Assembly: GCA_964346945.1 (NCBI GenBank)
Contig: CAYFXL010000002.1
Span: 1-58,136 of the forward strand
Origin: an uncultured Syntrophobacterales bacterium
Lineage (GTDB): Bacteria > Desulfobacterota > BSN033 > WVXP01 > G020346125
DNA: 58,136 nucleotides
Direction: 5' to 3'
Part shown: one piece after another, positions 13,652 to 29,287 of the stretch
How the letters are laid out: the number at the start of each line of letters is the position of its first letter
Position numbering within the stretch: the stretch's first letter is position 1
The notes under the pieces: generated by a model
Seen by the model: the letters and a program-made list of their open reading frames with translations, nothing else
Database searches by the model: none
What the model was told of the DNA's origin: nothing
Translations under genes and position numbers: made by a program

Positions 13652-14167
13652 CTACGGTCGTCGGCAACTTGATCCCGCAACGAATTTCTTGCTCACATCC
13701 ACGATAAAATCCCCTTCCAGGGCCGTTCGTCCGAGAATCATCCTGTAGTTCCTCCCCCTTCGATCCGTCAAATTGACCCGAATCCGCTTCTTAATCCCCC
13801 CCAGGCAAATCTCCAGCTCGATCTCTGGCCTCATTTTCGTTGCCGACATTAATCCTCTAATTCGCGCTTCTCTCAAAACGTCGGCCTCAATTATTTGGTA
13901 TCTCCCTTTACGATCCATCGTCTTGAAACGGATTCGAGACCCCTTCGCCTTCCCCTTCTTGGTATACTCAACGTCCATCGCATGGATCGAAGAATTCTTC
14001 GCCCCCGTATCAATCTTTGCCGTCAAAACGAATTCATACTCGGAAAGATAAACCCTTTCTAGCCATCCAACAACTGTCTTCTCACCAGCGATGGCATCTT
14101 TCCTTTCAACGGGACTCATCAGAATCGCAAGAATGAGAATCACCATCCAAGAAAGATTTCTCGACAT
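13652..14167 (-). CDS. Secreted retropepsin-like aspartic protease (ATP-dependent zinc protease / RimB-like family)
   Basis: Signal-like N-terminus, AKIDTGAKNSSIH (D-T-G-A aspartic motif) and C-terminal MILGRTALEGDFIVDV. Confidence 0.7.
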   Translation of the reverse strand: MSRNLSWMVILILAILMSPVERKDAIAGEKTVVGWLERVYLSEYEFVLTAKIDTGAKNSSIHAMDVEYTKKGKAKGSRIRFKTMDRKGRYQIIEADVLREARIRGLMSATKMRPEIELEICLGGIKKRIRVNLTDRRGRNYRMILGRTALEGDFIVDVSKKFVAGSSCRRP

Positions 14168-14463
14168 GGTCGATCCCTCCCTAATCCCGCTTCAGAAGCC
14201 CATTAATTGAGGACGTTATCGCTCAATGCCCCATATGTCAAGTTCTTAGAGGACCATCAAACCGCACCAGAAAAGGCCCATCCCCATGGAGAATTAACAG
14301 GAAGTTAATGTCCTGTCGCAAAACCTAGCTGAACCTGAAACCGCGCACTGGACAGCAGACTTAACGCCCCATGGTCAAGCGCCGGCAACATCATGACTTC
14401 CTTTGCTCGGCTCTCTTTGAACTGCTTGCTTTACTGCAGGCTATCTCCGGTACATCTGAAAAA

Positions 14464-14766
14464 TCAGATGGTGGGTTTTTCCTCGGGAGGTTTCCTTTCA
14501 GGGGTTTTTCCCCTTGGCCTTCCCCTTAGCCCCTTTTCCAATCGATCGATGGCATCGGCCGTCTTATCCTTCACGGATTCTGTGACGGAAGTCAGTTTTT
14601 CAACCTGTTCCCTCAAGCTATCTCCCGTGCGGTCCTTGAGGGATTCCATGGTTGATGAAAGGGAATCGACCGTCTTCCTCAATTCCTGTGCCCCCCCGGT
14701 TCTCCGATAAGCCAGGATGGAAATGAGCAGGGCGATGATTGCAATAATTAAGGTTATGACCAACAT
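14464..14766 (-). CDS. Small membrane protein: N-terminal TM plus coiled-coil/LEA-like tail; sigma54-dependent
   Basis: ATG 14766 with AGGGGGT 8 nt upstream. A perfect -24/-12 promoter lies about 70 nt upstream. Paralog of 7959..8225. Confidence 0.7.
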   Translation of the reverse strand: MLVITLIIAIIALLISILAYRRTGGAQELRKTVDSLSSTMESLKDRTGDSLREQVEKLTSVTESVKDKTADAIDRLEKGLRGRPRGKTPERKPPEEKPTI

Positions 14767-14834
14767 AGTTGTTTACCCCCTTTCGGTGATGGGTTTCATT
14801 TCCTACCACACGAGGTAGCCTTCGATGCAATAAC

Positions 14835-14849
14835 GCAACAAGCGTGCCA
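14835..14849 (-). promoter_or_regulatory. Sigma54 (-24/-12) promoter, leftward
   Basis: Minus strand reads TGGCAC-gcttg-TTGCG, which is gcaacaagcgtgcca on the plus strand. All 10 core positions match TGGCAC-N5-TTGC. Confidence 0.8.
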
Positions 14850-14902
14850 TCTTATTAACATATTGAATTTATTTAATATTTTTATTTCAAGGGATCATTT
14901 CA

Positions 14903-15048
14903 GGAACTCTCGGTTCCGAAAATTACGTCCGCCCATCCCATCTGCGCGGTGAAACAAAGGCGGAGGTCATTCCATTCCTTGCAAAGAGGGGAAACGGAAA
15001 AATGGAATTTAGAGTTCCGGTTGCTGACATATCGGAACTGGGAGTTCT
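14903..15048. promoter_or_regulatory. Upstream activator sites: three GGAAC-N5-GTTCC dyads (14903-14917 perfect; 15004-15018; 15034-15048)
   Basis: Sequences are ggaactctcggttcc, ggaatttagagttcc and ggaactgggagttct. Start-to-start spacing is 101 and 30 bp. Confidence 0.7.
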
Positions 15049-15299
15049 CATTGGCTAGGACGTTTTCAGAATAGGATGTCACCGGCTGCGTCTTTCTTGG
15101 AAACGTCTCAGCTCTTGAAGGTTCACGGTTTTCGGGGTATCTGACCTGCGTCTAGAACACGTAATCCACTTTTTTGATCGGCAGTAGATCAACCATATGG
15201 AAATCGGTATAATTACGGATAATTGATTTCGTTTATAAACGGACAGCAATTAGCCACGGTTTTGGAGGGTTCGATAAGGAAGAACATGGGGGGCCACAA

Positions 15300-16706
15300 G
15301 TGAAATCTATTCTTATTGCATCCCAGAACAATACGTCAAACAAAGTCCTTCAGGAAACCTTTGCTCCGGAGTATACGGTTGATACGGTATCCAGTAAGGC
15401 ATCATGCCTCGATAAGTTCATGCAGAGACGGTATGATTACACCTTTATCGACGTTGAACTGCTTCGTGAGGAAAGCAACGTACAAGGTCATTATGACTAT
15501 AAGACCGCCCTGCAGCCGTTTCGGGAAGCGTTTCCGACTGCCCAAATCATCGTTATGTCCTCTCAGGAGATGATAAGAGAAGCCGTCATGGCAGTAAAGG
15601 TAGGTGCCAGTAACTATCTTACCTACCCCATCGATAAAGAGGAGGCAAGATACATCGTCCAGAGCCTCTATGAATCCGTCAGGATGGAGTCGGAGCTGGA
15701 CTTTCTGCGGGACAGTTTTTGGGAGGCGGATTCTCTTGAGGTTGTCGAAACAAACAGCCCGTTGATGAGAGAAGTATTCGAAAAAGTCCGAGCAGTAGCG
15801 CCAACGAAAAGTACCGTCTTGCTCACCGGCGAAACCGGGACCGGAAAAGGAGTTGTGGCTAAGCTGATTCATCGTCATAGCCGCAGAAATGAAAAGCAAT
15901 TTATCAGTATCCATTGCGGAGCGATCCCCGATACGCTTCTTGAAAGCGAACTCTTTGGGCATGAAAAGGGGGCTTTTACCGGCGCTCTGCGGAGGAAGCT
16001 GGGGAAGTTTGAGCTCGCTCATGGGGGAACGATTTTCCTCGACGAAATCGGGACCGTCACTCCATCTGCCCAGATTAAGCTCTTGGGAGTATTGCAGGAT
16101 AAGAGTTTTCAACGGGTCGGCGGAGAGGCTACTATCGAAGTCGATGTAAGAATCATTACGGCAACAAATACAGATCTGAAGAAATTGACCGATGAAGGGT
16201 TTTTCAGAAGTGATCTGTACTATCGGTTGAGCGTATTTCCCATCGAAATTCCTCCATTAAGGGAGAGAAAAGAGGATATTCCGGTTATCTCAAGACATAT
16301 CCTGAAGAGACTAAACACATTTCATTCAAAAAAAATCGAAGACATTCATCCCCAGGTTCTGGAAGCTTTTTATCGGTATTCGTGGCAAGGCAACATACGA
16401 GAGCTGGAAAACCTCATAGACCGTGCATACATCCTGGAACCCTCCTCCATGCTCACCCCTGAGAGCTTTCCAAGCGAACTATTCACCCCCGGAGATACCC
16501 GGGCACAGCTCCCTCTCGATAAGGCCCTTACCATAGCGGAGGTACGGCGTCGTGGTATCGAAACCATTGAAAAAAAATACTTAAACGAACTCTTGACCTC
16601 ACACAAAGGGAGAATTTCAAGGACCGCGCAGGCTGCTGGGATAAGTGTCCGACAATTGCACAAGCTGATGACCAAATATGGAATACAGAAAGAACAGTTC
16701 AAGTAA
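15300..16706 (+). CDS. Sigma54-dependent transcriptional activator (degenerate receiver domain, AAA+ domain, Fis-type HTH)
   Basis: Walker A GETGTGKG, GAFTGA loop (GHEKGAFTGA), Walker B IFLDEIG and C-terminal HTH ISRTAQAAGISVRQLHKLMTKYGI. GTG start 15300 lies after a G-rich SD. Confidence 0.9.
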   Translation: MKSILIASQNNTSNKVLQETFAPEYTVDTVSSKASCLDKFMQRRYDYTFIDVELLREESNVQGHYDYKTALQPFREAFPTAQIIVMSSQEMIREAVMAVKVGASNYLTYPIDKEEARYIVQSLYESVRMESELDFLRDSFWEADSLEVVETNSPLMREVFEKVRAVAPTKSTVLLTGETGTGKGVVAKLIHRHSRRNEKQFISIHCGAIPDTLLESELFGHEKGAFTGALRRKLGKFELAHGGTIFLDEIGTVTPSAQIKLLGVLQDKSFQRVGGEATIEVDVRIITATNTDLKKLTDEGFFRSDLYYRLSVFPIEIPPLRERKEDIPVISRHILKRLNTFHSKKIEDIHPQVLEAFYRYSWQGNIRELENLIDRAYILEPSSMLTPESFPSELFTPGDTRAQLPLDKALTIAEVRRRGIETIEKKYLNELLTSHKGRISRTAQAAGISVRQLHKLMTKYGIQKEQFK

Positions 16707-16728
16707 CCCCAACCAAAATACATGGACC

Positions 16729-16874
16729 GGAATTTCGAGTTCCGATAATCCGGCTGTAAGAACCAAAAGTTCCTGTTTTCAGTTTCCCTTTTATTTCAAC
16801 TCCTTAAAGCATTTCAAAAAGCCTAACTCAAGGCAGGCGGAGCGTCGTTTCCCAGGACCGGAACTGTTAGTTCC
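16729..16874. promoter_or_regulatory. Upstream activator sites: three GGAAC-N5-GTTCC dyads (16729-16743; 16759-16773; 16860-16874 perfect)
   Basis: Sequences are ggaatttcgagttcc, agaaccaaaagttcc and ggaactgttagttcc. Spacing is 30 and 101 bp, the mirror image of the left set. Confidence 0.7.
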
Positions 16875-16921
16875 GATATATTGTCATCCATGATTCGCCC
16901 ATAATCCATAAAAGCTTGAAA

Positions 16922-16934
16922 TATCAATAGGTTA
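16922..16934 (+). promoter_or_regulatory. IHF-like bending site between the proximal dyad and the -24 element
   Basis: TATCAATAGGTTA fits WATCAANNNNTTR. The context is AT-rich. Confidence 0.3.
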
Positions 16935-16940
16935 TAACAC

Positions 16941-16955
16941 TGGCACGGCTTTTGC
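16941..16955 (+). promoter_or_regulatory. Sigma54 (-24/-12) promoter, rightward
   Basis: TGGCAC-ggctt-TTGCT lies about 55 nt upstream of GTG 17010, which has AGAGGAGG 6 nt upstream. Confidence 0.8.
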
Positions 16956-17009
16956 TGACGGTACTGCTAGGGTTCATACATACTGAGAAAAGTCAAGAGG
17001 AGGTAAGAG

Positions 17010-17378
17010 GTGAACTGGAGATTTTGGGAAAGGAAAATCGGTGCGGGAGAACCATCAGGGGCAAAAATGAAAAAGCTGCCGAGACCAAAGAATATCCCGG
17101 AGCCAGTGGGAAGGCATCTGGTTGTGAAGCTGGGAAAGAATCCCGATTGGGTCTGGAACCTTAAGGGCGCGGTGCGGCCTCGGGCGGAGGGGAAAAGTTG
17201 TTACGACGTTCGAATTTTCGATATGGCTGAGGCAGCTCGAAAGAGTGTGACCGTTAGGGACTACACGTCTCTTGATGAGCACCCGGAATTGGTCCTGTAC
17301 GAGGGATGGTTTGATAAGAAGACATTAAGGGTAGAAATCGAGAATAAACAGTCCTCACCGAAGCCGGCAACTGCCTAG
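17010..17378 (+). CDS. Hypothetical protein (122 aa), first gene of the sigma54 operon
   Basis: GTG start with a strong SD. No domain recognised. Alternative ATG at 17067. Confidence 0.5.
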   Translation: MNWRFWERKIGAGEPSGAKMKKLPRPKNIPEPVGRHLVVKLGKNPDWVWNLKGAVRPRAEGKSCYDVRIFDMAEAARKSVTVRDYTSLDEHPELVLYEGWFDKKTLRVEIENKQSSPKPATA

Positions 17379-17524
17379 TGCGGAAGGTCCAGCGGGATGC
17401 TTTTTCCGCAACTCGTCTTCCAAGCAGCGAGGGAGTTGAAAAGGAAAGTGACCTGAGCCTGATCATGGGTGGAACAACGACATTAGTTCAAGGTCCATTG
17501 CCATTCGTGTGGAGTTACTGGCAA

Positions 17525-17854
17525 ATGAAGCGGTATATTGAGCAGATCCCTATCAGAGGGATTATAATTCCGGTAGACTGGGATCAGGCAGGTAATGTTA
17601 TTAAGGCCGCCATTCTCACCGGTGACGAAGGGGAATATTTGATCGAGGAAAACACAGAGTCCCAGCAATTATTCTATTTGTTGCGCCGGGAAGTGGAGGT
17701 AAGAGGCGTGGTGAGGGAAGAAGCTGGTAGTAAAATAATCAGCGTAGAGAATTTCCGGGAGACCAAATCAGACCGGGGATGGACGGTTTCAGAGTCCATG
17801 AACATAAAACGCAAAGGAGGAAATAAGAATGGAGGAAGTTCCAGCCTGTCCTGA
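17525..17854 (+). CDS. Hypothetical small protein (about 110 aa) overlapping the kamA start
   Basis: ORF 17378..17854 trimmed to ATG 17525 (MKRYIEQIPIRGIIIPVDWDQAGNVIKAAILTGDEGEYLIEEN...). Its 3' end overlaps kamA by 26 nt. No domain recognised. Confidence 0.45.
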   Translation: MKRYIEQIPIRGIIIPVDWDQAGNVIKAAILTGDEGEYLIEENTESQQLFYLLRREVEVRGVVREEAGSKIISVENFRETKSDRGWTVSESMNIKRKGGNKNGGSSSLS

Positions 17855-19019
17855 CGATCACCCTTCCAAGGCAGGGGGTCTTCGGGTATTTTTTGATCAA
17901 GAAACACCCGAAGCAATCCGCCCATGGAATGGTGTGTCCCCCGAACAATGGAACGACTGGAAATGGCAACTTTTCCATCGGATATTCACCTTTGATAAAT
18001 TAAAAACCGCAATTCACCTGACAAAGAGCGAAGAAGAAGCGATTCGCCTGTGCTGGCACAAATTCCCCATGGCTATCACGCCGTACTTCACATCCCTTCT
18101 CGATCCATTCAATCCGAGATGCCCAATCCGATTGCAGTGTATCCCTCGAAAGAAGGAATTGGTTGTTGGGAAGAACGACATGATAGACCCGTGTGGCGAA
18201 GACCAAGATGCTGTGGTTCCCAACCTTGTCCATCGCTATCCAGATCGAGTACTTTTACTCGCCACCACGAAGTGCGCCGTCTACTGCCGATATTGCACTC
18301 GCAGGAGATTGGTAGGAAGGCGGGAGGTTGACATTACGCAAGAAAATCTGGATGCCATCTGGACCTACCTCCGAAAAAACAAGAAAATCCGAGACGTGCT
18401 GATTTCAGGCGGGGATCCATTCCTCCTGGAGGATACCCGTCTGGAATCGATTCTCAGACAGCTTCGAGCTATTCGCCATATCGAGATCGTAAGGATCGGG
18501 ACCCGTGTTCCCGTCACATTACCCATGAGGGTGACTGAAAGTTTCGCCAGCATGCTTCGTCAATATCACCCCCTTTTCGTTAACATCCACTTTACTCATC
18601 CCAAGGAGATCACGCCCGAAGTTCGAGAGGCTTGCAGTATCCTGGCGGATGCGGGAATACCCCTGGGAAGCCAGACCGTCCTTCTTCGAGGAATCAACGA
18701 CCAACCGTCCACCATCAAACAATTAGTCCACGAACTGCTGAAGATCAGGGTTCGTCCTTACTATCTCTATCAATGCGATCCTGCCATGGGCATCGATCAC
18801 TTCAAGACTCCTATATCGAGGGGAATCGAAATTATTCAATCCCTTCGAGGGTTCACGACAGGACACGCCGTCCCGACTTACGTGATCGATGCACCGGGAG
18901 GAGGCGGGAAGATCCCAGTAGGGCCGGACTATGTTCTAGGCTACCAAAACGGAGTTATGACGTTGAGGAATTACGCTGGCGAAATATACCACTATCGTGA
19001 AGCCAGAAAAGGGGCTTGA
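17829..19019 (+). CDS. kamA: Lysine 2,3-aminomutase (radical SAM/PLP, KamA/AblA family)
   Basis: CAVYCRYCTRR cluster motif, LISGGDP and PLP-Lys motif APGGGGKIP. Asp is retained in YQCDPAMG and VIDAPGG, the positions that bind the lysine epsilon-amine. SD AAAGGAGGAAA lies upstream. Confidence 0.85.
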   Translation: MEEVPACPDDHPSKAGGLRVFFDQETPEAIRPWNGVSPEQWNDWKWQLFHRIFTFDKLKTAIHLTKSEEEAIRLCWHKFPMAITPYFTSLLDPFNPRCPIRLQCIPRKKELVVGKNDMIDPCGEDQDAVVPNLVHRYPDRVLLLATTKCAVYCRYCTRRRLVGRREVDITQENLDAIWTYLRKNKKIRDVLISGGDPFLLEDTRLESILRQLRAIRHIEIVRIGTRVPVTLPMRVTESFASMLRQYHPLFVNIHFTHPKEITPEVREACSILADAGIPLGSQTVLLRGINDQPSTIKQLVHELLKIRVRPYYLYQCDPAMGIDHFKTPISRGIEIIQSLRGFTTGHAVPTYVIDAPGGGGKIPVGPDYVLGYQNGVMTLRNYAGEIYHYREARKGA

Positions 19020-19038
19020 AGCCCAGGAGGAGTATCAG

Positions 19039-20001
19039 TTGTCCGAAGCCGTGGACTTAGGCATTGCATGGGAGTGGGAATTCGATGCCGATTTCGTTTT
19101 CAGACTAGACAGAGCCTGTCAACAGGTCGGATTAAGTAGCTATATCGTGCACCCGAACAATCTCTTTGAAACGTGGGAGAGCGTTCAAAAGGGTTCCCTA
19201 TCCTTCCGAACTTTCTTGGATCGGGGTTCAGATAATGTGGAGACTATTCGGGCCCTAGTACGGCACCTCAAGGATATGGGGAAACCGCTCATCAATGACC
19301 CCGATCTTTTGCTGCGGGCAAACGATAAGGCCGTCATGCACTTAGAACTTCTAACCAGGGGAGTAGATGTTCCCTATACGATCATTGTTGGTCCCCAAGA
19401 GGGGGATCACATCCAGGATGTCCCTGAGCTCCAGCACATCGGGACCCCCTTCATCATCAAGCCGGCCAACGGCGGAGGAGGCCGGGGCGTTATCCTTGGC
19501 GCCCAGGATAAAGTCGACGTGGTGAAAGCCCGAAAAATCCTGTGGGGCGACACGATGCTGCTTCAGGAAGAGATCCAGCCCGCCCAACTTCCCCTTGGGA
19601 TGGCTTGGTTTCGCACCTTCATGGTGGACCAAAACGTTCATCTGTGCTGGTGGAATAAGGATACTCATGTCTACCGACCGGTGTTACCCATTGAGGAGGT
19701 CGAATTCGGTTTAGACATGCTGAGAAACATCACCAGAAAGATCGGAGAGGTTTGCCGACTGACGCTTTTTTCCACCGAAATCGCCCAATCCAGTGGCGGG
19801 CGATTTGTGGCCGTTGATTATGTCAATGACCAGCCCGACTTCAGGCCCCGCTCAAAGGCGCCCGACGGGGTCCCTGATCCTGTTTTGAATAATATTGTGA
19901 TGGATATTGTTCGCTGGGTCAAAGAATATGTCCAAGCAGATGAGAGCCGGGGTTCACCTGTCATTCCTCAGACGAAAGGGGAGATCGAGAGGAACGGATG
20001 A
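19039..20001 (+). CDS. ATP-grasp amide ligase (RimK/GshB-like)
   Basis: DKAVMHLELLTRGVDVP, FIIKPANGGGGRGV and LLQEEI motifs. Start is either TTG 19039 (AGGAGG 8 nt upstream) or GTG 18997, which overlaps the kamA end by 23 nt. Confidence 0.7.
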   Translation: MSEAVDLGIAWEWEFDADFVFRLDRACQQVGLSSYIVHPNNLFETWESVQKGSLSFRTFLDRGSDNVETIRALVRHLKDMGKPLINDPDLLLRANDKAVMHLELLTRGVDVPYTIIVGPQEGDHIQDVPELQHIGTPFIIKPANGGGGRGVILGAQDKVDVVKARKILWGDTMLLQEEIQPAQLPLGMAWFRTFMVDQNVHLCWWNKDTHVYRPVLPIEEVEFGLDMLRNITRKIGEVCRLTLFSTEIAQSSGGRFVAVDYVNDQPDFRPRSKAPDGVPDPVLNNIVMDIVRWVKEYVQADESRGSPVIPQTKGEIERNG

Positions 20002-20061
20002 CTCGTGAGAACGGTATATCAGGCTTGCATTCATCCATTACGAAGCACAGGAGAGATGAAG

Positions 20062-21126
20062 ATGAGAATTGGCATCGCCTATGATCTAAAACACGACTTT
20101 TCCATCGATGGGGGACATCCTGACGATTGGCTCGAAGAGTACGACTCTGAAGGCACTATCCAGGCCGTTCAAGATGCAATTGAGGCGCTGGGTCACGAAG
20201 TTTTCCGCCTTGGGGGGGGACGAACCTTCTTGGAACGGATTAGCACCACTCCGGTCGACATGGTCTTTAACCTTGCCGAGGGATGGAAAGGGAGAAACAG
20301 AGAAGCTCACATTCCGGCCTTCCTTGAGATGTTGGAGATTCCCTTCACCCACTCTGACCCATTGACCCTCGCCGTGACCCTTGACAAGGGGATGGCCAAG
20401 AGAATTGTCATCAGCGAGGGAATTCCAACCCCGGCTTTCAAGCTGATGAAGAGTCAAATGGAAGCGGAGAATATAGGCCTTTCATTCCCTCTCTTTGTTA
20501 AGCCGGCCTACGAGGGATCGAGCAAAGGGATCAGCTCCCACTCACGGGTCAACGATGAAGGGGCATTAAAACGTGAGATTGGCCGTCTCTTGGATAACTA
20601 TGGGACACCAGTCCTGGTTGAAACCTTTCTCCCTGGAAGGGAATTCACCGTGGGTATCTTCGGGAATGGTTCACCCTATGTGCTCGGGATCATGGAAGTA
20701 GCCCCTTCCGAAGGCTCGGTTGAGAACTTCATCTATTCTGTTACGGCGAAGCGAGACAGTGATCAGAGAGTCCGATACAGATGTCCCCCAGATCTTTCTG
20801 CCTCGCTGTTACAACGGATCGAGGAGGTTGCACTCGGCTCATACAGGGTTCTCGGATGTAGAGACGTTGCCCGAATCGATATTCGTCTTGGCGACGATGG
20901 CACCCCCTATTTTCTCGAGGCAAATCCCTTACCTGGACTCGCCCCGGGATACAGCGACCTGGTGATCATTGCAGAGTTTATGGGATGGTCCTATGGGCAA
21001 CTCATTGAGACTATTCTGTGCCACGCTTTTGGGCGGTACGGCATCGATGAAAAAGCATACAGTGACATTTCCCTCGTGATGAGGCAAACCGCCCGAACGC
21101 GACCGGCGGCCTCCCACCCTAGCTAG
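20062..21126 (+). CDS. D-alanine--D-alanine ligase-family ATP-grasp ligase (paralog 1)
   Basis: MRIGIAYDLK..EYDSEGTIQAVQDAIEALGHEV, LFVKPAYEGSSKGIS, VLVETFLPGREFTVG and YFLEANPLPGL. ATG 20062 lies 8 nt after GGAG. Confidence 0.75.
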   Translation: MRIGIAYDLKHDFSIDGGHPDDWLEEYDSEGTIQAVQDAIEALGHEVFRLGGGRTFLERISTTPVDMVFNLAEGWKGRNREAHIPAFLEMLEIPFTHSDPLTLAVTLDKGMAKRIVISEGIPTPAFKLMKSQMEAENIGLSFPLFVKPAYEGSSKGISSHSRVNDEGALKREIGRLLDNYGTPVLVETFLPGREFTVGIFGNGSPYVLGIMEVAPSEGSVENFIYSVTAKRDSDQRVRYRCPPDLSASLLQRIEEVALGSYRVLGCRDVARIDIRLGDDGTPYFLEANPLPGLAPGYSDLVIIAEFMGWSYGQLIETILCHAFGRYGIDEKAYSDISLVMRQTARTRPAASHPS

Positions 21127-21183
21127 TTCAATCAACTCAAAAAGCATGATGGGGATTGGATTTTCCCGGTAAAGGGGGATTTC

Positions 21184-22203
21184 TTGGAAAAGTCGCCCGT
21201 TGCAATTGTCTACAATGAGCCCGTCAGCCCGGAGGACTCCTATTCCGAAGCCTCCCGCGATATTCTCGATCAAGTTGAGGCTGTCGAGGGAAGTCTCACC
21301 ACGCTAGGGGTTCCCTCGATCCGTATTCCCTTCACCCGGGATTTGCCATCTTTTGTGGATAAAATCTCGGGTGCGGGGATCCAATATGCCTTCAACCTCT
21401 GTGAATCAGTAGACGAGAATCCCCGGTTGGTTGGATACCCAGCTGCCGTCATGGATATTCTCGGCGTTTCATACACGGGATCTTCCTCGCTGGCACTGGC
21501 GATAACCACGGATAAACTGTATACGAAGTGGCTTTTGAGGGCTCAAGGGGTTCTCACACCCAAATTCGAGACCTACGATAATAGGTTACTCCCCAAACTG
21601 AAAGGCCTCAGGTTTCCGGTTATCATAAAACCTCGGTTCGAGGATGCCTCCATCGGGATCGACCAGGAGTCTGTTGTGAGTGACGAGAAGAAGTTGAGGG
21701 AAACGCTTCCGGAATTCCACGATCGTTTTGGCCCTCTCATCCTAGAAGAGTACATCTCAGGCAGGGAGTTCAATGTGTCGCTCTTTGGGTACCCATCATC
21801 CCATGTGATGCCCATCGCCGAGATATCCTTTGATGGTTTTCCCGGGGAACTCTATCCCATCGTGGGATACAGGGCGAAGTGGGATAGAGAATCATTTGAG
21901 TATCATCACATGCCTCGACTGTTTCCAAAGGATCTTCCGGAGATTCTGGAAAGGAGGATCCGTCGCGCAGCCATGGATTGTTTCCAGCACTTCATGCTGA
22001 GAGATTACGCCCGTGTTGACTTTAGGGTAAACCATTCCGGAGTTGCCTATGTCCTGGAGATCAACGCCAACCCCTGCATCAGCCCCGACGCGGGATTTCC
22101 GGCAGCTCTGGCAGAAGCTGGAATTGACTATGACGGGTTCGTGCGTCAAATGCTCGATTTTGTTCAAAAGAGAAGGGGGGAGACTCATTCTCCAGAGCAT
22201 TGA
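21184..22203 (+). CDS. D-alanine--D-alanine ligase-family ATP-grasp ligase (paralog 2)
   Basis: VAIVYNEP..., VIIKPRFEDASIGID, LILEEYISGREFNVS and YVLEINANPCISP. TTG start follows AAGGGGGA. Confidence 0.75.
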   Translation: MEKSPVAIVYNEPVSPEDSYSEASRDILDQVEAVEGSLTTLGVPSIRIPFTRDLPSFVDKISGAGIQYAFNLCESVDENPRLVGYPAAVMDILGVSYTGSSSLALAITTDKLYTKWLLRAQGVLTPKFETYDNRLLPKLKGLRFPVIIKPRFEDASIGIDQESVVSDEKKLRETLPEFHDRFGPLILEEYISGREFNVSLFGYPSSHVMPIAEISFDGFPGELYPIVGYRAKWDRESFEYHHMPRLFPKDLPEILERRIRRAAMDCFQHFMLRDYARVDFRVNHSGVAYVLEINANPCISPDAGFPAALAEAGIDYDGFVRQMLDFVQKRRGETHSPEH

Positions 22204-22263
22204 AGGGGTTCCAAAACCCTGGCTATAGACCAACATGAACGAACATGGAGCCATGAGAGATAC

Positions 22264-22842
22264 ATGAAAAGAACTGCGAAGCTCGAAACTCTGAAGAAGC
22301 TGAGCTTCATCGAGAAAAGGAAAATTCGAAGGCCTTTCACCCTGAGGGGAAGAGAGGGAGAGTCGGAGATTCGCTTTAGGACACTCAAACGTGCGGATAG
22401 GGAAAAAATCCGAGAGGTTCTGGAGGATGTTAAATCCTTTACCCCTGAAGAGATTTCGGTCGCACTTTCCCTGCTGGATGAGACTTTAGGTGGTAGTACT
22501 GCCTATCGTTTTCTGGTTGCAACCGACGAACGTGACACGGCCCTCGGTTACATCTGTTATGGCCAGGCTCCCATGACCTCTAGCACCTGGGATATCTACT
22601 GGATCGCAGTCTCCAGGAGATTTCAGAAAAGACATATCGGCAATATGCTCCTTCGAGGGGCTGAAGACGAGATTTGTGCTGAAGGAGGAAGGCTGATCAT
22701 CATTGAAACGTCAACTAAACCATCTTACCGTTCTACCAGGAGATTTTATGAGAAGATGGGATATCGCGTGAGCGCGAGGATTGCGAAATTCTATTCCGAG
22801 AGAGATGACAAGCTCGTCTACAGCAAGTATTTTTCGTCCTGA
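22264..22842 (+). CDS. GNAT-family N-acyltransferase
   Basis: Acyl-CoA binding segment IAVSRRFQKRHIGNMLL and C-terminal FYEKMGY. Confidence 0.75.
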   Translation: MKRTAKLETLKKLSFIEKRKIRRPFTLRGREGESEIRFRTLKRADREKIREVLEDVKSFTPEEISVALSLLDETLGGSTAYRFLVATDERDTALGYICYGQAPMTSSTWDIYWIAVSRRFQKRHIGNMLLRGAEDEICAEGGRLIIIETSTKPSYRSTRRFYEKMGYRVSARIAKFYSERDDKLVYSKYFSS

Positions 22843-23018
22843 GGGAAGGCACGTGGACCGTTCAGATCATCCCTCCCGTGATAATTTCGTACTCCATTAT
22901 GAGTCCAATGGAAAGACCGAAAAATCCTTCCATGAAGTTCTCAAAGAACGACCTTCGTTGAAGGAGTTTTAGACGCTCATGGTACTAGGCCATAGCCCTT
23001 TGTAATTCTGAGGTGTGC

Positions 23019-24542
23019 ATGCCAACTGAGACTTTCCGCCCCATAAGGGAAATCAAAAGCCCGACTCTGTCTCTTCTATCCTTGCAGCGCCAAGGGGCCC
23101 GAGCTGACACCTCGGAGGTCAGAGATTACGGTATGCACACTAGCAAAGATCAAAAGATTTTACGCCTTAAGTTGAAAAAGGGCCTTCGGGACGCGACGCT
23201 TGATGGATCATCCTATTCGGTCATGACTTCCCTGACAAACGGGGTGTTCCTTACGGGGTTTGCTCTGGCACTGGGTGCCAGTCATTTCGAGATTGGGGTC
23301 ATTGCCTCCTTACCTCTGCTGGCCCCCATGGTTCAGTTACCCGTCTCCCCCTTTCTTGCCCGAAAGCGCCTTAAGAGCATCTGCCTCTGGACATCCTTTT
23401 TGGGGCGGTCGGCATGGGGAGCCATTGCTCTGCTCCCCTTAATTGCAGCGTCCTCCCTTTCGCATTCGGCTGTCTGGATCTTAATCCTCGGTCTGGCCGT
23501 CTATCACTGTTCTGCTTCTATCGCTAGTATATCCTGGATTTCCTGGATGACTGAACTTGTCCCGGAAAAGATTCGAGGACGGTATTTTGGAAACAGAAAC
23601 GTGGCCATCGGAGCCGTTGGAATGATTGCAACCCTTGGAGCGGGATTTCTGATTAAACGGTATGATGTATGGTTCAAGCCCGAGGACTTGACTGGCTTCA
23701 CGTTTTTATTTCTGGCCGCCCTCATGTTTGGATATACGAGCATGCTCTTCCTGAGGAAGGTTCCGTTCTCCTCAGGTTTCGACGAGAAAACACACCGGTC
23801 TTTTGCTCAATCTCTCTCAACGGTTTTGAGGGACAAGAGATTTCTCATTTTCATTCTTTTCAGCTCTTGTTGGGGTTTTGGGGTAAATCTGGCATCGCCC
23901 TTCTTCACGGTCTTTATGTTTCAAGATCTTTATCTCGGATATGAGACCATTGCCCTTTATACGGGATTGACCCTGATGGCCAATTTACTGGGGATGTGGT
24001 TTTGGGGAAGGGCTTCAGATCGGTATGGAAATAAACCGGTCATGCAGTCAATGGGGCTTTTGGCGGCCATCTTTCCATTTCTCTGGGTCCTCGCCACGCC
24101 AAACACTGTCAGGTACATGGGCCCTTTTAACCATTTATTGGGCGGTTTTTGTTGGGCCGGAATCAACCTCACCTCTGTTAATCTGCTTCTGAAACTAGCA
24201 AGAAAGGGGGAACAGGCTGTCTATTTTGGCGCACACGCATTTGCTTGCAGCCTCTTTATTGCACTCGGACCCCTGGTAGGAGGCATACTTTCGGAGCATT
24301 TCTCTCATCTGAACCTCAGGCTGGGAGCGCTGCATATCTATCACCTCCATTTTGTCTTCATTTTTTCGACGTTCCTCCGGTATGGCTCTCTCATGCTACT
24401 TCGATGGGTCCCCGAACCAAAAGGGGTTCCTGTTTTTAGTATGATAAAGGCCCTCAGCAATATAAAGAGATTGAGCACGATGATGGGGTTGCAGCCCTTG
24501 ATCCATCCGGCTTTGATCCAGTCAGTGAAATTAAGAAAATGA
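23019..24542 (+). CDS. MFS transporter (paralog of 9312..10820)
   Basis: Multi-TM profile with WGRASDRYGNKPVM. ATG 23019 has GAGGT 5 nt upstream. Alignment with the paralog favours the alternative ATG 23133. Confidence 0.75.
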   Translation: MPTETFRPIREIKSPTLSLLSLQRQGARADTSEVRDYGMHTSKDQKILRLKLKKGLRDATLDGSSYSVMTSLTNGVFLTGFALALGASHFEIGVIASLPLLAPMVQLPVSPFLARKRLKSICLWTSFLGRSAWGAIALLPLIAASSLSHSAVWILILGLAVYHCSASIASISWISWMTELVPEKIRGRYFGNRNVAIGAVGMIATLGAGFLIKRYDVWFKPEDLTGFTFLFLAALMFGYTSMLFLRKVPFSSGFDEKTHRSFAQSLSTVLRDKRFLIFILFSSCWGFGVNLASPFFTVFMFQDLYLGYETIALYTGLTLMANLLGMWFWGRASDRYGNKPVMQSMGLLAAIFPFLWVLATPNTVRYMGPFNHLLGGFCWAGINLTSVNLLLKLARKGEQAVYFGAHAFACSLFIALGPLVGGILSEHFSHLNLRLGALHIYHLHFVFIFSTFLRYGSLMLLRWVPEPKGVPVFSMIKALSNIKRLSTMMGLQPLIHPALIQSVKLRK

Positions 24543-24749
24543 ACAGAGTTCCCTAGTGAGAAACGGTGCACCAAAGCCAATAAAAGGAGCATCTTGATCA
24601 GAATTCCAGAGTAAGGCAGCAGATTTTCGGATGTTTGCTCGAACTGGTTCCCATCAACGGAAATCGAAATTACGTCCGAATGGTTGTGCTGTCCTTCAGA
24701 AGTTCAAGGGGTATCATGGTCCAAAGAGATGATAAAGAAGGAGATCCGC

Positions 24750-26171
24750 ATGAAGACCAACCATTGCAAGGCCCTTCAGACAATCCACCGCGAAATAGAT
24801 ATGATGTTCCCGGATCACTTGGAAAAGTGTCGCGAATTTCTCCGCCAAAAGAGCGTTTCCGCCACGGGTGAGGGACTCCTGGGAACCGCTGAGCTGATAA
24901 GGGAGCGTCTCGAAGGAATAGGAGCCGAGGTTTGGTTCTATGGTCAAGATAAGAGCCCGATTATTCTTGGTCAGTATGGGGGAGACCATTCGAGAACGCT
25001 CTTGATCTACGGGATGTACGACGTTCAACCGGCTGAAGAGCAAGGGTGGATTTCCCCACCCTTTGAAGCCAAAATTGTCAACCTTCCACGCTTTGGGGAT
25101 TGCGTCATCGCCCGGGGAGCGGTCAATTCCAAGGGGGCCTTGGCAGGCGTTATGAATGTCCTCGCGACTATGGCCCATTCGGATCTCCTCCCGGTTAACC
25201 TGATTTTCGTCATCGAGGGAGAGGAGGAGATAGGAAGCCCAAACCTTCCTCCTTGTATTGCTCAACACGCGAATTTGCTTCGATCAGCTGACGGGGTGGT
25301 GGATTTCGATTTCTCGGAGGACACGCGGGGAAAGGTCAGCATGCATCTCGGGTTGAAGGGTATCGTCTACATGGATCTAACCCTACAGGGTGGCAAGAAA
25401 AGTGGTTCCCAATTCGAAGAGTTACACAGTTCGGTCAGCGCGTGGATCCGATCTCCTGTTTGGCGCATGGTTCACGCCCTGGCCTCCTTGGTGGAACGTT
25501 CCGAGAGGATAAAAGTCGAGGGGTTCTATGAGAACGTGGCGAAACTTTCCCGAAAGGATCTTGCACTCTTGCGGAAGCTGGAAAAAGTCTTTGACCCGGA
25601 AGCCTTTCTCAAAGAAATGAAAAGCCTCTCTTTCAAGACCAATCGGCGGGGCATCCAGTTGTTAAAGACAGGCCTTTATCAACCGGTAATTAACATTAAT
25701 GGGATTCACGCCGGATATACCGGGCCGGGAACAAAAACGGTGCTCCCCAGGACAGCCACGGCGAAGATCGATATCCGCTTTGGCCCGAATATGGAAGGCG
25801 ACGAGGTAGTGGATAAAATCCAGAGGCACTTCAAGCAGTTGGGTTACGATGACCTTCAAATTCGCATGAGGGATAATTACCCCTGGTCAAAGACAGATCC
25901 GGACGATCCCTTGGTCAAAACGATGCTCTCGGCCTACCGTGCCCACAGAATAGAGCCCCAGGTGTGGCCCCTGGCCACATGGGCGGCTCCTTATTTCGCC
26001 TTCAGTCGGCCGCTGGAGCTCCCCGTCGTGGCCGGAGGATTAGGACATGGTGGCCACGCTCACGCCCGCAATGAGTACTTTGTGGTCGAGGGACTGAAGC
26101 GATTTGAGAAATTTGTGGCAACTTTTTTGTACAAGTTTGCTAGTCAACGAAAGAACCCTCACACGGCTTGA
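24750..26171 (+). CDS. M20-family metallopeptidase/deacylase homolog (Dug1/CNDP-like) with an atypical metal site
   Basis: LLIYGMYDVQPAEEQGWISPPF, ARGAVNSKGA, VIEGEEEIGS and GGHAHARNEY. ATG 24750 follows AAGGAG. The expected His (GHYD) is Met and the expected Asp (DDKG) is Asn. Confidence 0.7.
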   Translation: MKTNHCKALQTIHREIDMMFPDHLEKCREFLRQKSVSATGEGLLGTAELIRERLEGIGAEVWFYGQDKSPIILGQYGGDHSRTLLIYGMYDVQPAEEQGWISPPFEAKIVNLPRFGDCVIARGAVNSKGALAGVMNVLATMAHSDLLPVNLIFVIEGEEEIGSPNLPPCIAQHANLLRSADGVVDFDFSEDTRGKVSMHLGLKGIVYMDLTLQGGKKSGSQFEELHSSVSAWIRSPVWRMVHALASLVERSERIKVEGFYENVAKLSRKDLALLRKLEKVFDPEAFLKEMKSLSFKTNRRGIQLLKTGLYQPVININGIHAGYTGPGTKTVLPRTATAKIDIRFGPNMEGDEVVDKIQRHFKQLGYDDLQIRMRDNYPWSKTDPDDPLVKTMLSAYRAHRIEPQVWPLATWAAPYFAFSRPLELPVVAGGLGHGGHAHARNEYFVVEGLKRFEKFVATFLYKFASQRKNPHTA

Positions 26172-26282
26172 GGGTTGCCAGAGCACTTTGGGAGCACATT
26201 ATCATTTGAAGAAACGAGGGAATTACTGATAGTTGTTCTCCACAATTAACGAAACCGGAATATTACTTGGAGGGACATTTAT

Positions 26283-26741
26283 ATGCAATTGGAGGATAAA
26301 GCAATCCGTCAAGAGAGGCTCTACAGGATGCTTTTAACCAAGCGAGCAGAATTGGCGACTCGAATTAGGGAAGAGCTTGGAGAAAAGATAGCTGAGGATT
26401 TGGAATCCCTCCTGGGTCCAGCCTCAGACCTGGGAGATCTCAGCAGCCTTCACCTTGAACGAGATGTCAAATTTGAACTGCTCACTATGTATACCGAAAA
26501 TATGAAGGATATCGATGAGGCTCTGGATCGAGTCGACGAGGGGACCTACGGGATCTGCACGGAATGCGGTGAAAGGATTGGAGAGAAGCGCCTCCAGGCG
26601 ATGCCTTTTGCCATCTGTTGCCTGGAGTGCCAGCGGGAGAAAGAGAAGTTGAAAGAGACAGGTCGGGGCGAGGTCTGGATGGAAACACAACCCCAAATTG
26701 ACCAGGACCAATCCGATTGGGATGAATCTGGAATAGAATGA
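26283..26741 (+). CDS. DksA/TraR-family C4 zinc-finger protein
   Basis: N-terminal coiled coil, then CTECGERIGEKRLQAMPFAICCLEC (CxxC-x17-CxxC). Confidence 0.8.
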   Translation: MQLEDKAIRQERLYRMLLTKRAELATRIREELGEKIAEDLESLLGPASDLGDLSSLHLERDVKFELLTMYTENMKDIDEALDRVDEGTYGICTECGERIGEKRLQAMPFAICCLECQREKEKLKETGRGEVWMETQPQIDQDQSDWDESGIE

Positions 26742-27205
26742 TTTAACAACTGGGGAATAAAGGTGTTCTTCCTGGGCCGGGCTATAGTTATTTCTCGGTT
26801 ATGGCCCCGCTTTCTTTTAGTCCAGAGTAAATGGGAAAGACGGAGCTCCTGAGATCGTTTGATTCCCGCGATTAAGAGCATATCTCCTGAATCCCCCACC
26901 ACAAGATCTTCGAGGCCGTTACTTTGTGCGGAGTAGAATTTCAGGTGTTATACCATCAGCGTCTCTGAACCGAATAGGGGACGAGCGTCCCAGCTCTTCA
27001 ATTTTCGACTATACCCACAGGGGACATGGTGGCCAAAGGAGCTCTCTATCGTTGTGGAGTAGTTCGCAGAATACTAAAGCTTCGCCCATCTTCTCTACAG
27101 TCCAACGGACTATCAGCCTAAACAAAATAATTCCAGAAAGCTTTCGAATTATTCGATGGTAATCTTCTCACATAAGACGAGAACATATTTCCCGTTTGAG
27201 ACGGT

Positions 27206-27234
27206 TTGACAATTCAAGCCATATCAGATATTTT
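27206..27234 (+). promoter_or_regulatory. Possible sigma70-type promoter of the glgE operon
   Basis: TTGACA (27206-27211), a 17-nt spacer, then TATTTT (27229-27234), about 60 nt upstream of the glgE ATG. Confidence 0.35.
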
Positions 27235-27292
27235 TAACGTTTGATATTAAGGCCTTACCTGATTTCGCTGCTGGCCAGATGAAAGGTGAATT

Positions 27293-29287
27293 ATGATAAG
27301 CATTGGGAACGGAAGAAATCGGGTCATCATTGAGGGTGTTGAACCCGAGATCGACGGTGGACGATTTCCCATAAAACGAACGCTCGGCGAACAGGTCGTC
27401 GTTGAAGCCGATATTTTTACCGATGGCCATGACGCCATCTCCTGTGTAGTTCTCTATCGGAAAAACAGCGAATCTCAATGGAGCGAGCACCCCATGGATT
27501 TCCTTGCCAACGATCGTTGGCAAGGTGAGTTTGCCGTGACGGAACTGGGGCAATATCGTTACACCCTCCAGGCCTGGATCGACCATTTCAAATCGTGGCG
27601 CCAGGGTCTCCTGAAGAAACTGGATGCAGGGCAAGATGTTTCTGTCGATCTCCTGACGGGGGCCGACCTCATCGAAGAGGCGACCCAGCGAGCCGTTGGA
27701 TCTGACGCGAAAAAACTGAAAGAACGGGCACTCTCATTGCGCTCAGCGGAGGAGGGATCCGGCAGGATTCAGGTTGCTACCGCCGGGGAACTATCCGAGT
27801 TAATGGCGAAATATCCGGACAAGGAACTAACTACCATGTATGATCGAGAACTCGTCGTGGTGGTGGACCGACCGAAGGCCCGCTTCAGCGCCTGGTATGA
27901 GATTTTTCCCCGATCATGCGCGCCCGGGGCGGGACGCCATGGCACCTTCCAAGACTGTGAAGCTCGTTTTTCGTATATCGCGGCTATGGGTTTTGACGTA
28001 CTCTACTTCCCGCCCATTCACCCCATCGGTCAGACGCACCGAAGGGGTAAGAATAACACCTCTACCGTTGGCCCGGATGATCCTGGAAGCCCCTGGGCTA
28101 TCGGCTCGGCGGATGGAGGACATAAGGATGTACACCCCCAACTCGGTAACCTGAAGGACTTTCGCCGGCTCGTGACCAAGGCCAAGGAGCATGGGCTAGA
28201 GATTGCCATAGACCTTGCCTTTCAGTGCACACCCGATCACCCATACGTGAAGGAACACCCGGAGTGGTTTCGCTGGCGTCCCGACAGGACCGTACAGTAT
28301 GCGGAAAATCCGCCCAAGAAGTATGAGGATATTTACCCCCTCAATTTCGAGACGGAAAAGTGGCAGGAACTCTGGGCCGAGCTCAAAGAGGTGGTGCTTT
28401 TCTGGATCGATCAGGGGGTGAGTATCTTTCGGGTGGATAACCCTCACACGAAGCCGTTCAACTTTTGGGAGTGGCTCATCGGCGGGATTAAAAAGGACTA
28501 TCCAGAGGTAATCTTCCTGGCTGAGGCTTTCACTCGACCGAAGGTGATGTATCAACTGGCAAAGCTGGGCTTCACGCAATCGTATACTTACTTCGCGTGG
28601 CGAAACACCAAAGGGGAACTCACCCAGTATTTCACGGAACTGATGCAGACTAACGTGCGAGAGTACTTCCGCCCTAGCCTCTGGCCGAACACTCCCGACA
28701 TTCTGACGGAATACCTCCAAATGGGCGGACGTTCGGCATTCATGGCACGGCTCGTCCTGGCGGCAACCCTGGGAGCCAATTACGGGATCTATGGACCAGC
28801 CTTCGAGCTCTGTGACAGGCGGCCCAAGGAATTCGGAAGCGAGGAATATTTGGATTCCGAAAAGTATGAGATCAAGAACTGGGACATTACAAAACCGGAT
28901 AGCCTGAGGGACTTTATTGCCCGAGTGAACCGTATCCGGCGAGAGAACCCCGCTCTTCACGGAGACTGGAGCCTGTGTTTCCACTCTATAGACAATGACC
29001 AGCTCATCTGTTACAGCAAACGGACGGAAGATTGTTCGAATGTTATAGTGGTCGTGGTAAACCTAGACCCTCACCACACACAGGCGGGATGGGTTGAACT
29101 TGGTCTATCTGATCTGGGGATTAATCATGAGATGCCCTACCAACTACATGATCTTTTGAGCGAAGCGCGCTACTTATGGCACGGCCACCGGAACTACGTG
29201 GAACTCAATCCCCAGATAGTCCCGGCTCAGATTTTCCGGGTGCGGCACAAAATCCGTACGGAAAGGGATTTCGATTACTTCATGTAG
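27293..29287 (+). CDS. glgE: Alpha-1,4-glucan:maltose-1-phosphate maltosyltransferase
   Basis: Characteristic N-terminus RVIIEGVEPEIDGGRFPIKR. GH13 core with FRVDNPHTKP and IFLAEAFTRP. Confidence 0.9.
   Translation: MISIGNGRNRVIIEGVEPEIDGGRFPIKRTLGEQVVVEADIFTDGHDAISCVVLYRKNSESQWSEHPMDFLANDRWQGEFAVTELGQYRYTLQAWIDHFKSWRQGLLKKLDAGQDVSVDLLTGADLIEEATQRAVGSDAKKLKERALSLRSAEEGSGRIQVATAGELSELMAKYPDKELTTMYDRELVVVVDRPKARFSAWYEIFPRSCAPGAGRHGTFQDCEARFSYIAAMGFDVLYFPPIHPIGQTHRRGKNNTSTVGPDDPGSPWAIGSADGGHKDVHPQLGNLKDFRRLVTKAKEHGLEIAIDLAFQCTPDHPYVKEHPEWFRWRPDRTVQYAENPPKKYEDIYPLNFETEKWQELWAELKEVVLFWIDQGVSIFRVDNPHTKPFNFWEWLIGGIKKDYPEVIFLAEAFTRPKVMYQLAKLGFTQSYTYFAWRNTKGELTQYFTELMQTNVREYFRPSLWPNTPDILTEYLQMGGRSAFMARLVLAATLGANYGIYGPAFELCDRRPKEFGSEEYLDSEKYEIKNWDITKPDSLRDFIARVNRIRRENPALHGDWSLCFHSIDNDQLICYSKRTEDCSNVIVVVVNLDPHHTQAGWVELGLSDLGINHEMPYQLHDLLSEARYLWHGHRNYVELNPQIVPAQIFRVRHKIRTERDFDYFM

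Follow-up and report, generated by a model that had tools for sequence, protein, structure and literature searches.

A candidate ATP-grasp route to acetylated beta-lysine peptides: a kamA operon behind a sigma-54 promoter in an uncultured Syntrophobacterales bacterium

To our knowledge, the only beta-lysine-based stress solute described so far is N-epsilon-acetyl-beta-lysine. Bacillus subtilis brings KamA, the GNAT-family acetyltransferase YodP, and the M20-type protein YodQ together in its yodT-kamA operon. N-epsilon-acetyl-beta-lysine is produced by AblA and AblB (PMC1224877), and a second acetylated small molecule, the osmolyte N-acetylglutaminylglutamine amide (NAGGN), is a dipeptide with an N-acetyl group, the product of a GNAT/ligase enzyme whose operon includes a peptidase gene as well (PMC8070244). 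In this paper, we focus on one operon, at positions 17010-26171 of a 58,136-nucleotide stretch of DNA from an uncultured Syntrophobacterales bacterium (contig CAYFXL010000002.1; we call the whole stretch the window), in which a lysine 2,3-aminomutase-type enzyme, KamA, is encoded together with three ATP-grasp ligases, a GNAT protein, a transporter of the major facilitator superfamily (MFS), and an M20 peptidase. The B. subtilis operon, unlike this one, has no ATP-grasp ligases, and its CoA-transferase and aminotransferase genes are absent here. Beta-lysine solute pathways that start from KamA are known already, as are pathways in which ATP-grasp ligases build small peptides.

What might such a combination make? 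We think it probable that these ligases make a small beta-lysine amide. The fuller reading, a stress operon controlled by sigma-54 and its activator that makes a small, nonribosomal, N-acetylated beta-lysine peptide with a stress-protectant role, we hold at only a little short of an even chance.

The nine open reading frames (ORFs) of the operon all lie on the + strand where the original prediction had placed them, and the junctions between them are, as it had said, overlaps or short gaps. ORF1 and ORF2 overlap by 1 nt, ORF2 and kamA by 26 nt, and kamA and the first ligase gene (AG1) by 23 nt; the remaining gaps are, in order, 3, 57, 60, 170, and 141 nt (the 3 nt becoming ~60 nt if the first of the two genes related to D-alanine-D-alanine ligase, or Ddl, starts at 20062), with the two widest falling 5' of the MFS gene (170 nt) and 5' of the M20 gene (141 nt). 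Domain calls from Pfam and NCBIfam agree with the composition claimed for it: LAM_C and Radical_SAM for KamA, a weak RimK/ATPgrasp_ST match and two Dala_Dala_lig_C domains for the three ligases, then GNAT, MFS_1, and Peptidase_M20 with M20_dimer. A pattern scan places a perfect sigma-54 (-24/-12) promoter element, TGGCACGGCTTTTGC, at 16941-16955 on the + strand (2 matches to this pattern in the window vs. 0.08 expected), and a ribosome-binding site, GAGGAGG, stands ahead of the GTG at 17010. With this element and an enhancer-binding-protein gene next to it, the sigma-54 control proposed earlier is plausible. An Rfam scan of 8000-28000 at E<=0.1 returned no RNA family, and therefore, the larger intergenic gaps hold no riboswitch.

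The enzyme that would commit the pathway to beta-lysine is KamA (17829-19019, + strand). Among the KamA subfamily models, the AblA equivalog TIGR03820 scores highest (497.9 bits, just below its cut-off of 525.4), ahead of glutamate 2,3-aminomutase (TIGR04368, 432.6 bits against a cut-off of 650), arginine 2,3-aminomutase (394.1 bits against 600), and EpmB (TIGR03821, 230.1 bits against 369.3). A phmmer alignment to the lysine 2,3-aminomutase (LAM) of Clostridium subterminale (2A5H) gives 448 bits over 358 residues; the radical S-adenosylmethionine (SAM) cluster motif CxxxCxxC reads CAVYCRYC, and Asp293 (QCD), Asp330 (IDAPGGGGK), and the lysine that carries pyridoxal phosphate (PLP), Lys337 in 2A5H numbering, are all kept. 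In LAM, Asp293 and Asp330 bind the epsilon-ammonium of the substrate, and glutamate 2,3-aminomutase has Lys and Asn in their place. The motifs and the two aspartates had been assigned by eye, and the 2A5H alignment confirms that assignment; by model scores and residues alike, the protein is neither EpmB-like nor glutamate-aminomutase-like. Judged by its sequence, then, KamA is a lysine-type 2,3-aminomutase, as had been predicted, and an enzyme of this type would be expected to produce beta-lysine.

Ddl-type ligase 1 (20005-21126, with a public gene call that starts at 20062) and Ddl-type ligase 2 (21184-22203), both on the + strand, pass the Pfam threshold for Dala_Dala_lig_C (119.6 and 80.4 bits), yet they stay below every curated Ddl/Van cut-off (172 and 125 bits, respectively, against the Ddl model PRK01372, for which the cut-off is 243). 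What they share with the Ddl/Van family is the fold and, when aligned to Escherichia coli DdlB (a reference sequence verified against 1IOV/2DLN), all of the ATP/Mg and transition-state residues: K97, K144, E180, K215, R255, D257, E270, and N272. What sets them apart, besides their scores, is the specificity positions. Type 1 keeps Glu15 and Ser150 and has Arg in place of Tyr216; type 2 has Ala in place of Glu15, Ala or Gly in place of Ser150, and Trp in place of Tyr216; both are altered at Ser281/Leu282. The changes at the first three positions hold for each type in all of the lineages described below. On this alignment, both Ddl-like proteins have lost the residues of D-Ala specificity.

The gene order of the window recurs, at 60-90% protein identity, in at least 10 independent contigs that are metagenomic or belong to metagenome-assembled genomes (MAGs), and hence, the arrangement is not due to chance. 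(Loci on such contigs that were compared with the window are given L-numbers.) The set found throughout this clade consists of the activator gene (where upstream sequence is available), ORF2, KamA, AG1, both Ddl types, and the GNAT. Relatives of Ddl-type 1 at 52-56% identity mark a second Thermodesulfobacteriota lineage (lineage B) with the order Ddl-type 1, PAS histidine kinase, sigma-54 activator, receiver protein, KamA (~60% identical to that of the window), and Ddl-type 2; every contig that is long enough, ~30 of 80, has this arrangement, and because they share synteny with tatC and rlmI, we count them as one lineage and not many. Relatives of the GNAT at 42-50% identity end compact, overlapping KamA-Ddl-Ddl-GNAT cassettes in a Chloroflexota MAG (L097), in a second lineage (L098/L099), and in a third context (L104). 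The ligases of these cassettes sort cleanly into type 1 (E, S, R) and type 2 (A, A/G, W), so that the two types form orthologous groups across phyla, each marked by a constant set of changes at the specificity positions. The KamA proteins of the related cassettes also have AblA as their best model, at 478-531 bits (478-490 in the compact cassettes and 531.4, which clears the cut-off, in L013 of lineage B), and they keep both aspartates, as seen in L013, L097, and L098. The GNAT of the cross-phylum core is ~160-190 aa long.

In several lineages, KamA is either a neighbor of Ddl-type ligases or coupled to them in translation, and hence, the two are functionally linked. The evolutionary unit is KamA with two distinct Ddl-type ligases, usually joined by the GNAT. 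AG1, ORF2, and the M20 gene are additions within the window's clade, and the MFS gene and ORF1 occur in only part of it. The original prediction had drawn the unit differently, as an ATP-grasp trio with a dedicated MFS and an M20 enzyme, and had proposed a survey of how kamA and the trio co-occur: the Ddl pair goes with kamA across phyla, whereas AG1 was found in its company only in the window's clade.

The GNAT gene (22264-22842, + strand; Pfam Acetyltransf_1/7/10) encodes a RimI-like protein whose best NCBIfam match, RimI at 45.9 bits, is below the cut-off. At E<=0.01, that scan returned RimI, generic GNAT, and AAC(6') models, all sub-cut-off, and no AblB-type model. The best match in the PDB is 2R7H (113 bits), which was deposited as a "putative D-alanine N-acetyltransferase" and which comes, we take it, from Oleidesulfovibrio alaskensis (Desulfovibrio) G20. 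The parallel drawn earlier with AblB is, therefore, not one that the protein itself bears out, and in the window, three ligase genes separate kamA from the GNAT gene.

This matters for the simplest account of the locus, which is that KamA and the GNAT make plain N-epsilon-acetyl-beta-lysine after the fashion of AblA and AblB and that the ligases serve some unrelated function, such as making a cell-wall dipeptide. KamA and a GNAT are, after all, a known two-gene solute pathway (PMC1224877), and the KamA score comes near the AblA cut-off; the likeness to AblA/AblB takes in the clustering of a lysine-type KamA with a GNAT, the stress or osmotic setting, and the use of a beta-amino acid as a metabolically inert building block (PMC1224877; PMC3543383). 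The window departs from AblA/AblB in its non-AblB GNAT, its M20 enzyme, its sigma-54 activator, and the two to three ATP-grasp ligases encoded between kamA and the GNAT gene. Such ligase genes lie between these two, and overlap them, in at least four lineages, and the Ddl types have neither the D-Ala-D-Ala specificity residues nor a score above any Ddl cut-off. We consider plain acetyl-beta-lysine synthesis very improbable.

How, instead, might the parts work together? In the pathway that we favor, KamA would turn L-lysine into (3S)-beta-lysine, the dedicated building block, and each Ddl-type ligase would form one amide bond by way of an acyl-phosphate. Ddl-type 1 probably activates a free amino acid, because it keeps the Glu and Ser that hold a free amino group beside the activated carboxylate; Ddl-type 2, because it has lost them, probably activates a carboxylate with no free ammonium next to it, for example that of an N-blocked or beta-amino substrate. 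The GNAT would then acetylate a remaining amine and so remove its charge, and in the window's clade, AG1 would add a further residue, most plausibly an acidic one. The M20A-family enzyme would hydrolyze the product for turnover or else remove the acetyl group or a terminal residue, and in the closest relatives, the MFS protein would move the product across the membrane. The product would most likely serve in the cytoplasm as a protectant or compatible solute, or else be a stress metabolite directed to the envelope, and it would be made alongside a co-regulated Rlo-like envelope system to which we return below.

The closest functional precedents for such a pathway would be AblA/AblB and NAGGN. 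With the Ngg/AsnO/peptidase operon for NAGGN in Sinorhizobium and Pseudomonas, the window would have in common GNAT and peptide-ligase chemistry and a peptidase gene, and the NAGGN operon is osmotically regulated (PMC8070244); the window, in contrast, has no AsnO amidotransferase, its Ddl-type ligases are separate proteins, and its beta-amino acid would come from a radical SAM enzyme.

The M20A-family metallopeptidase (24684-26171, + strand), of the dipeptidase/carboxypeptidase type, is above the Pfam cut-offs for both Peptidase_M20 (64.1 bits) and M20_dimer (44.4 bits). Its best PDB matches are the Sulfolobus carboxypeptidase Sso-CP2 (4MMO, 202 bits) and then DUG1, CNDP2, and carnosinase (CNDP1); the gene is kept in L006, L009, L011, L012, and L020, that is, wherever a contig of the clade reaches far enough. 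The matches to CNDP1 and CNDP2 suggest an analogy with the carnosine system, in which a beta-amino-acid peptide is hydrolyzed by an M20A enzyme. Carnosine synthase, too, is an ATP-grasp enzyme. The carnosine system is eukaryotic, however, and its ligases are not homologous to these at the family level, so that the resemblance would be functional only.

Would two or three ligases not serve equally well to build a chain? A locus with several ligases and one dedicated enzyme for supplying the monomer might make oligo- or poly-beta-lysine or a cyanophycin-like reserve of nitrogen and charge, capped by the GNAT and mobilized by peptidases. A Peptidase_S51 gene (cyanophycinase/dipeptidase E family) near the L097 cassette and a Peptidase_S58 gene after a myxobacterial Ddl-Ddl fusion would suit such a polymer, and RimK-type enzymes are capable of polymerizing (PMC11957051). 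The locus has, however, no cyanophycin-synthetase-like architecture, the relatives of its M20A enzyme are dipeptidases and carboxypeptidases, and the differences between the Ddl types at their specificity positions suggest two distinct steps rather than iteration. We regard a polymer as quite unlikely and return to a small peptide.

The third ligase, AG1 (18997-20001, + strand, with a start that may lie anywhere from 18997 to ~19040), is only distantly RimK/LysX-like: it scores 52.4 bits against the RimK-family model TIGR00768 (cut-off 143.4), and its matches to Pfam RimK and ATPgrasp_ST are below gathering. An AlphaFold (AF2) model with a pLDDT (predicted local distance difference test) of 90.6 has as its top Foldseek matches 3VPD, 3VPC, and 5ZCT (LysX/ArgX/RimK; TM, or template-modeling, scores 0.60-0.75, E ~1e-13), and Ddl structures match it equally well, at an identity of <=20%. 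K139, D258, and N261 are invariant in the family. On the strength of this model, AG1 is an ATP-grasp amidoligase, and to judge from their residues, the window has three catalytically intact ATP-dependent carboxylate-amine ligases; across phyla, two of these go together as an obligate pair. AG1 has close homologues (65-90% identity), and every one of them lies within the same cluster, in metagenomic contigs and MAGs of Thermodesulfobacteriota/Syntrophobacterales. More distant homologues (40-49% identity), from Nitrospinae and Bacteroidota, are encoded by solitary genes, and no gene beside these is informative as to function; the homologue in a Nitrospinae genome (L001, 10001-12016) is convergent to an arginase-family gene.

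Immediately upstream of the operon lies the gene for a sigma-54 enhancer-binding protein (15300-16706, + strand; Sigma54_activat at 228 bits, Response_reg, HTH_8), which combines a receiver domain and an AAA+ domain with a helix-turn-helix of the Fis type. In L006, L009, and L010, an orthologue (72-87% identity) is encoded ahead of the cluster. On the other side of the window's gene, a divergent sigma-54 operon occupies 9312-14849 on the - strand, with its promoter at 14835-14849; this operon, which was absent from the original prediction, shares candidate activator sites with the kamA operon. The sites are palindromes of the form GGAAYT-N3-5-RGTTCC. A motif scan finds two of them upstream of the kamA promoter, within 16727-16876: CCGGAATTTCGAGTTCCG at 16727-16744 and CCGGAACTGTTAGTTCCG at 16858-16875 (no strand assigned), and the palindrome occurs also upstream of the divergent promoter, at 14901-15020. 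The strict 18-nt pattern CCGGAAYTNNNRGTTCCG, with <=2 mismatches allowed, has 7 matches in the window vs. 0.72 expected, and all 7 lie upstream of the two sigma-54 promoters. The activator motif and a sigma-54 promoter also precede the cluster in L009, L010, and L017, with an equivalent promoter in L012. The enhancer-binding protein probably activates the operons on either side of its gene. Another perfect palindrome of the activator type, GGAACTCTCGAGTTCC, stands at 30713-30728 within the TreS-Mak coding region; because no sigma-54 promoter is nearby, it is probably there by chance.

The divergent operon encodes a DUF948-like protein, an RloA-like retropepsin (Zn_protease, 96 bits, with a hydrophobic N-terminus), an RloB-like transglutaminase-7TM protein (7TM_transglut, 273 bits, with Transglut_core), an RloC-like ATP-grasp protein (a full-length ATPgrasp_ST ligase, 301 bits), and an MFS protein (MFS_1). 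It has, in other words, the secreted retropepsin-like protease, the 7TM protein of the inactive-transglutaminase type, and the ATP-grasp protein by which RloABC is defined. In Pseudomonas aeruginosa, genetic evidence connects the Rlo system with tolerance of osmotic stress: loss of the Rlo proteases brings hypo-osmotic sensitivity and cell-shape defects that rloB or rloC mutations suppress (PMC11957051). The likeness to RloABC/RimABK thus resides in the divergent operon, with its triad of RloA, RloB, and RloC and the activator sites that it has in common with the kamA operon; no such protein is encoded in the kamA operon itself, and the similarity of AG1 to the window's RloC-like ligase is marginal (E 4e-4). 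In L006, a 7TM_transglut gene comes after the M20 gene.

Two small proteins head the kamA operon, and both are real and conserved. ORF1 (17010-17378, + strand; ~115 aa) belongs to an unannotated family with 285 representative clusters at E<=1e-3; the alignments begin at residue 1, which supports the GTG start. A profile of the family has no match in Pfam or among PDB sequences, and its AF2 model (core pLDDT ~90) has no fold match in the PDB. Members occur in L009, L010, and L017, a weak one lies ahead of kamA in the Chloroflexota cassette (L097, 3284-3619), and another (L100, 2650-3021) has a GT2 glycosyltransferase gene on one side and RloA/RloB-like genes on the other, with a gene for a related sigma-54 enhancer-binding protein adjoining. 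In many members, the last residues are -AA, which calls to mind C-terminal degradation tags. ORF2 (17378-17854, + strand, the true start probably being internal) has a conserved domain of ~70 aa that a Pfam scan matches to nothing; it is found only in the window's clade, where L006-L011 and L017 have it directly ahead of kamA and L012 has a degenerate copy that scores low. Additional paralogues of this domain occur in L006 (7967-8404), L010 (5929-6312 and 4887-5114), and L017 (962-1252 and 6951-7322). Two of these, at L006 7967-8404 and L010 5929-6312, have hydrophobic, signal-peptide-like N-termini, so that copies of the domain seem to be active on either face of the membrane.

These small proteins invite the thought that the operon tags proteins or peptides, with beta-lysine, and perhaps other residues, being ligated to a protein, acetylated, and trimmed by the M20 enzyme, on the analogy of RimK/RimI, LysX/LysW, and EpmA/EpmB. 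The best folds for AG1 (LysX/ArgX/RimK) are, indeed, those of enzymes that act on protein C-termini, the GNAT is RimI-like, an ORF1-family gene sits beside Rlo (RimB/RimK-like) genes in L100, and the kamA operon is a candidate for co-regulation with the rlo-like operon. Against this, L098, L104, and lineage B have neither ORF1 nor ORF2, and ORF1 is absent from L006; characterized Ddl-type enzymes join small molecules, and KamA needs a free amino acid. Nor do the C-termini of ORF1 and ORF2, which are neither acidic nor conserved, resemble that of LysW, and we rejected a LysW-like carrier role for them on that ground. Protein tagging, for which the target could be ORF1, ORF2, a ribosomal protein or translation factor, or an envelope protein, seems to us unlikely.

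The MFS transporter (23013-24542, + strand; MFS_1, 110 bits) was expected to be dedicated to the pathway. It is present in the cluster only in the closest relatives, L009 and L017, and is missing from five other versions (L006, L007, L011, L012, and L020); it is also 30% identical (E 5e-56) to the MFS protein of the divergent operon. It is an accessory and dispensable. This bears on another account of the locus, in which the product is an exported bioactive metabolite (an antibiotic, a signal, or a metal-binding peptide), the ligases act like the L-amino-acid ligases of pathways to small-peptide antibiotics, the GNAT gives self-protection or makes a pro-drug, the M20 enzyme activates or detoxifies, and the MFS protein exports. 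Beta-lysine does occur in streptothricin and viomycin, and streptothricin resistance comes from GNAT acetylation of the beta-lysine amine. The L-amino-acid ligase BL00235 is among the PDB matches of Ddl-type 1, and MFS genes are found not only within the operon here and in L009 and L017 but also near the cassettes of L097 and L098. What makes this account doubtful is, apart from the missing transporter, that the cassette sits amid housekeeping genes in several phyla and not in variable islands, that the GC content of the window is unremarkable, that the tailoring and resistance genes usual in antibiotic clusters are absent from the locus, and that its candidate sigma-54 activator control is common to an envelope-stress system. 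An exported bioactive metabolite would, in our judgment, be improbable.

Several points nevertheless weigh against the stress-protectant peptide as well. Everything past the KamA step is inferred from family chemistry and gene context, and no substrate beyond lysine can be read from the sequences; likewise, the GNAT does not look AblB-like. ORF1 and ORF2 have no part in the model. The MFS gene of the cluster, together with a co-regulated Rlo system that includes a secreted protease, fits an exported or envelope product equally well, and the fit of the neighborhood to osmotic or envelope stress is circumstantial. All of the carriers found are uncultured organisms. No paper on this gene combination was found in a search that covered open-access papers and bioRxiv only, a scope that we count on the same side; within it, the earlier statement that no characterized pathway has this composition holds.

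Among homologues, the public annotations read "hypothetical," "ATP-grasp domain-containing protein," "D-alanine-D-alanine ligase," and "RimI-like." It is possible, if a shade less so than the stress-operon reading, that KamA-Ddl-Ddl-GNAT is an unrecognized multi-phylum cassette for a new class of ATP-grasp-built, acetyl-capped beta-lysine peptides, extended in this clade by a third ligase, an M20 enzyme, and two small proteins and wired to the Rlo activator. If this is true, there would be a new cytoplasmic metabolite linked to osmotic and envelope homeostasis, and the ligase-extended version of the beta-lysine solute would add a family of beta-amino-acid peptides to microbial stress chemistry. 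A function would be assigned to many anaerobe genes now annotated "D-alanine-D-alanine ligase," and the two new ATP-grasp specificities might be useful for the enzymatic synthesis of beta-peptides. The shared activator sites would give a handle on the still-unexplained Rlo system by placing it in one regulon with a biosynthetic pathway, and the four-gene core is small enough for direct heterologous expression.

Where the transcript ends is a smaller matter. A terminator scan found none that is convincing within the operon; the best terminator-like site on the + strand, a hairpin followed by a T-run, is at 26779-26807, after a gene for a DksA/TraR-type zinc-finger protein (26283-26807 for gene and hairpin, + strand; zf-dskA_traR). 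That gene also lies downstream of the cluster in the closest relative, L009, and because the first good terminator comes after it and its position is kept there, it may be a tenth cistron. Farther on is an alpha-glucan/trehalose block (27293-40868, + strand) with GlgE, a TreS-maltokinase fusion, GlgB, two alpha-amylase-family enzymes, and MalQ; by domains, size, and position, the alpha-amylase-family pair would be a TreZ-like protein (624 aa, with CBM_48) and a TreY-like one (934 aa). GlgE follows the cluster in L009 and L020 also. Close to the locus is a gene for a CdaA-type diadenylate cyclase with a YbbR domain (41053-42504, - strand); cyclic di-AMP regulates the homeostasis of potassium and osmolytes. 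Genes for a CorA Mg2+ transporter and a small TrkA_C membrane protein (5281-6363 and 8575-9234) lie on the - strand, just past the rlo-like operon.

Some observations on the related loci remain. The Chloroflexota cassette, L097, is flanked (213-2275 and 7504-9243) by three genes: the Peptidase_S51 gene, one for a 437-aa protein that has no Pfam match and by eye resembles an adenylate-forming enzyme, and, directly after the GNAT gene, one for a 579-aa Hist_deacetyl protein (a deacetylase) that is possibly a counterpart of the M20 enzyme. Ddl-Ddl fusion proteins exist in myxobacteria; the Anaeromyxobacteraceae fusion in L016 (1-3334) is 633 aa long and is followed by the Peptidase_S58 gene (DmpA/beta-aminopeptidase family); the visible part of that contig has no kamA. 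In L010, the activator gene is separated from the kamA cluster by groES-groEL (2815-4753); the idea that this groES-groEL pair is under the same sigma-54 promoter is unsupported, because the pattern scan places that promoter only downstream of groEL. In L006, the same interval between activator gene and cluster contains a TENA/THI-4 gene and a gene (6032-6301) for a Lys/Glu-rich, hydrophilin-like protein of 89 aa.

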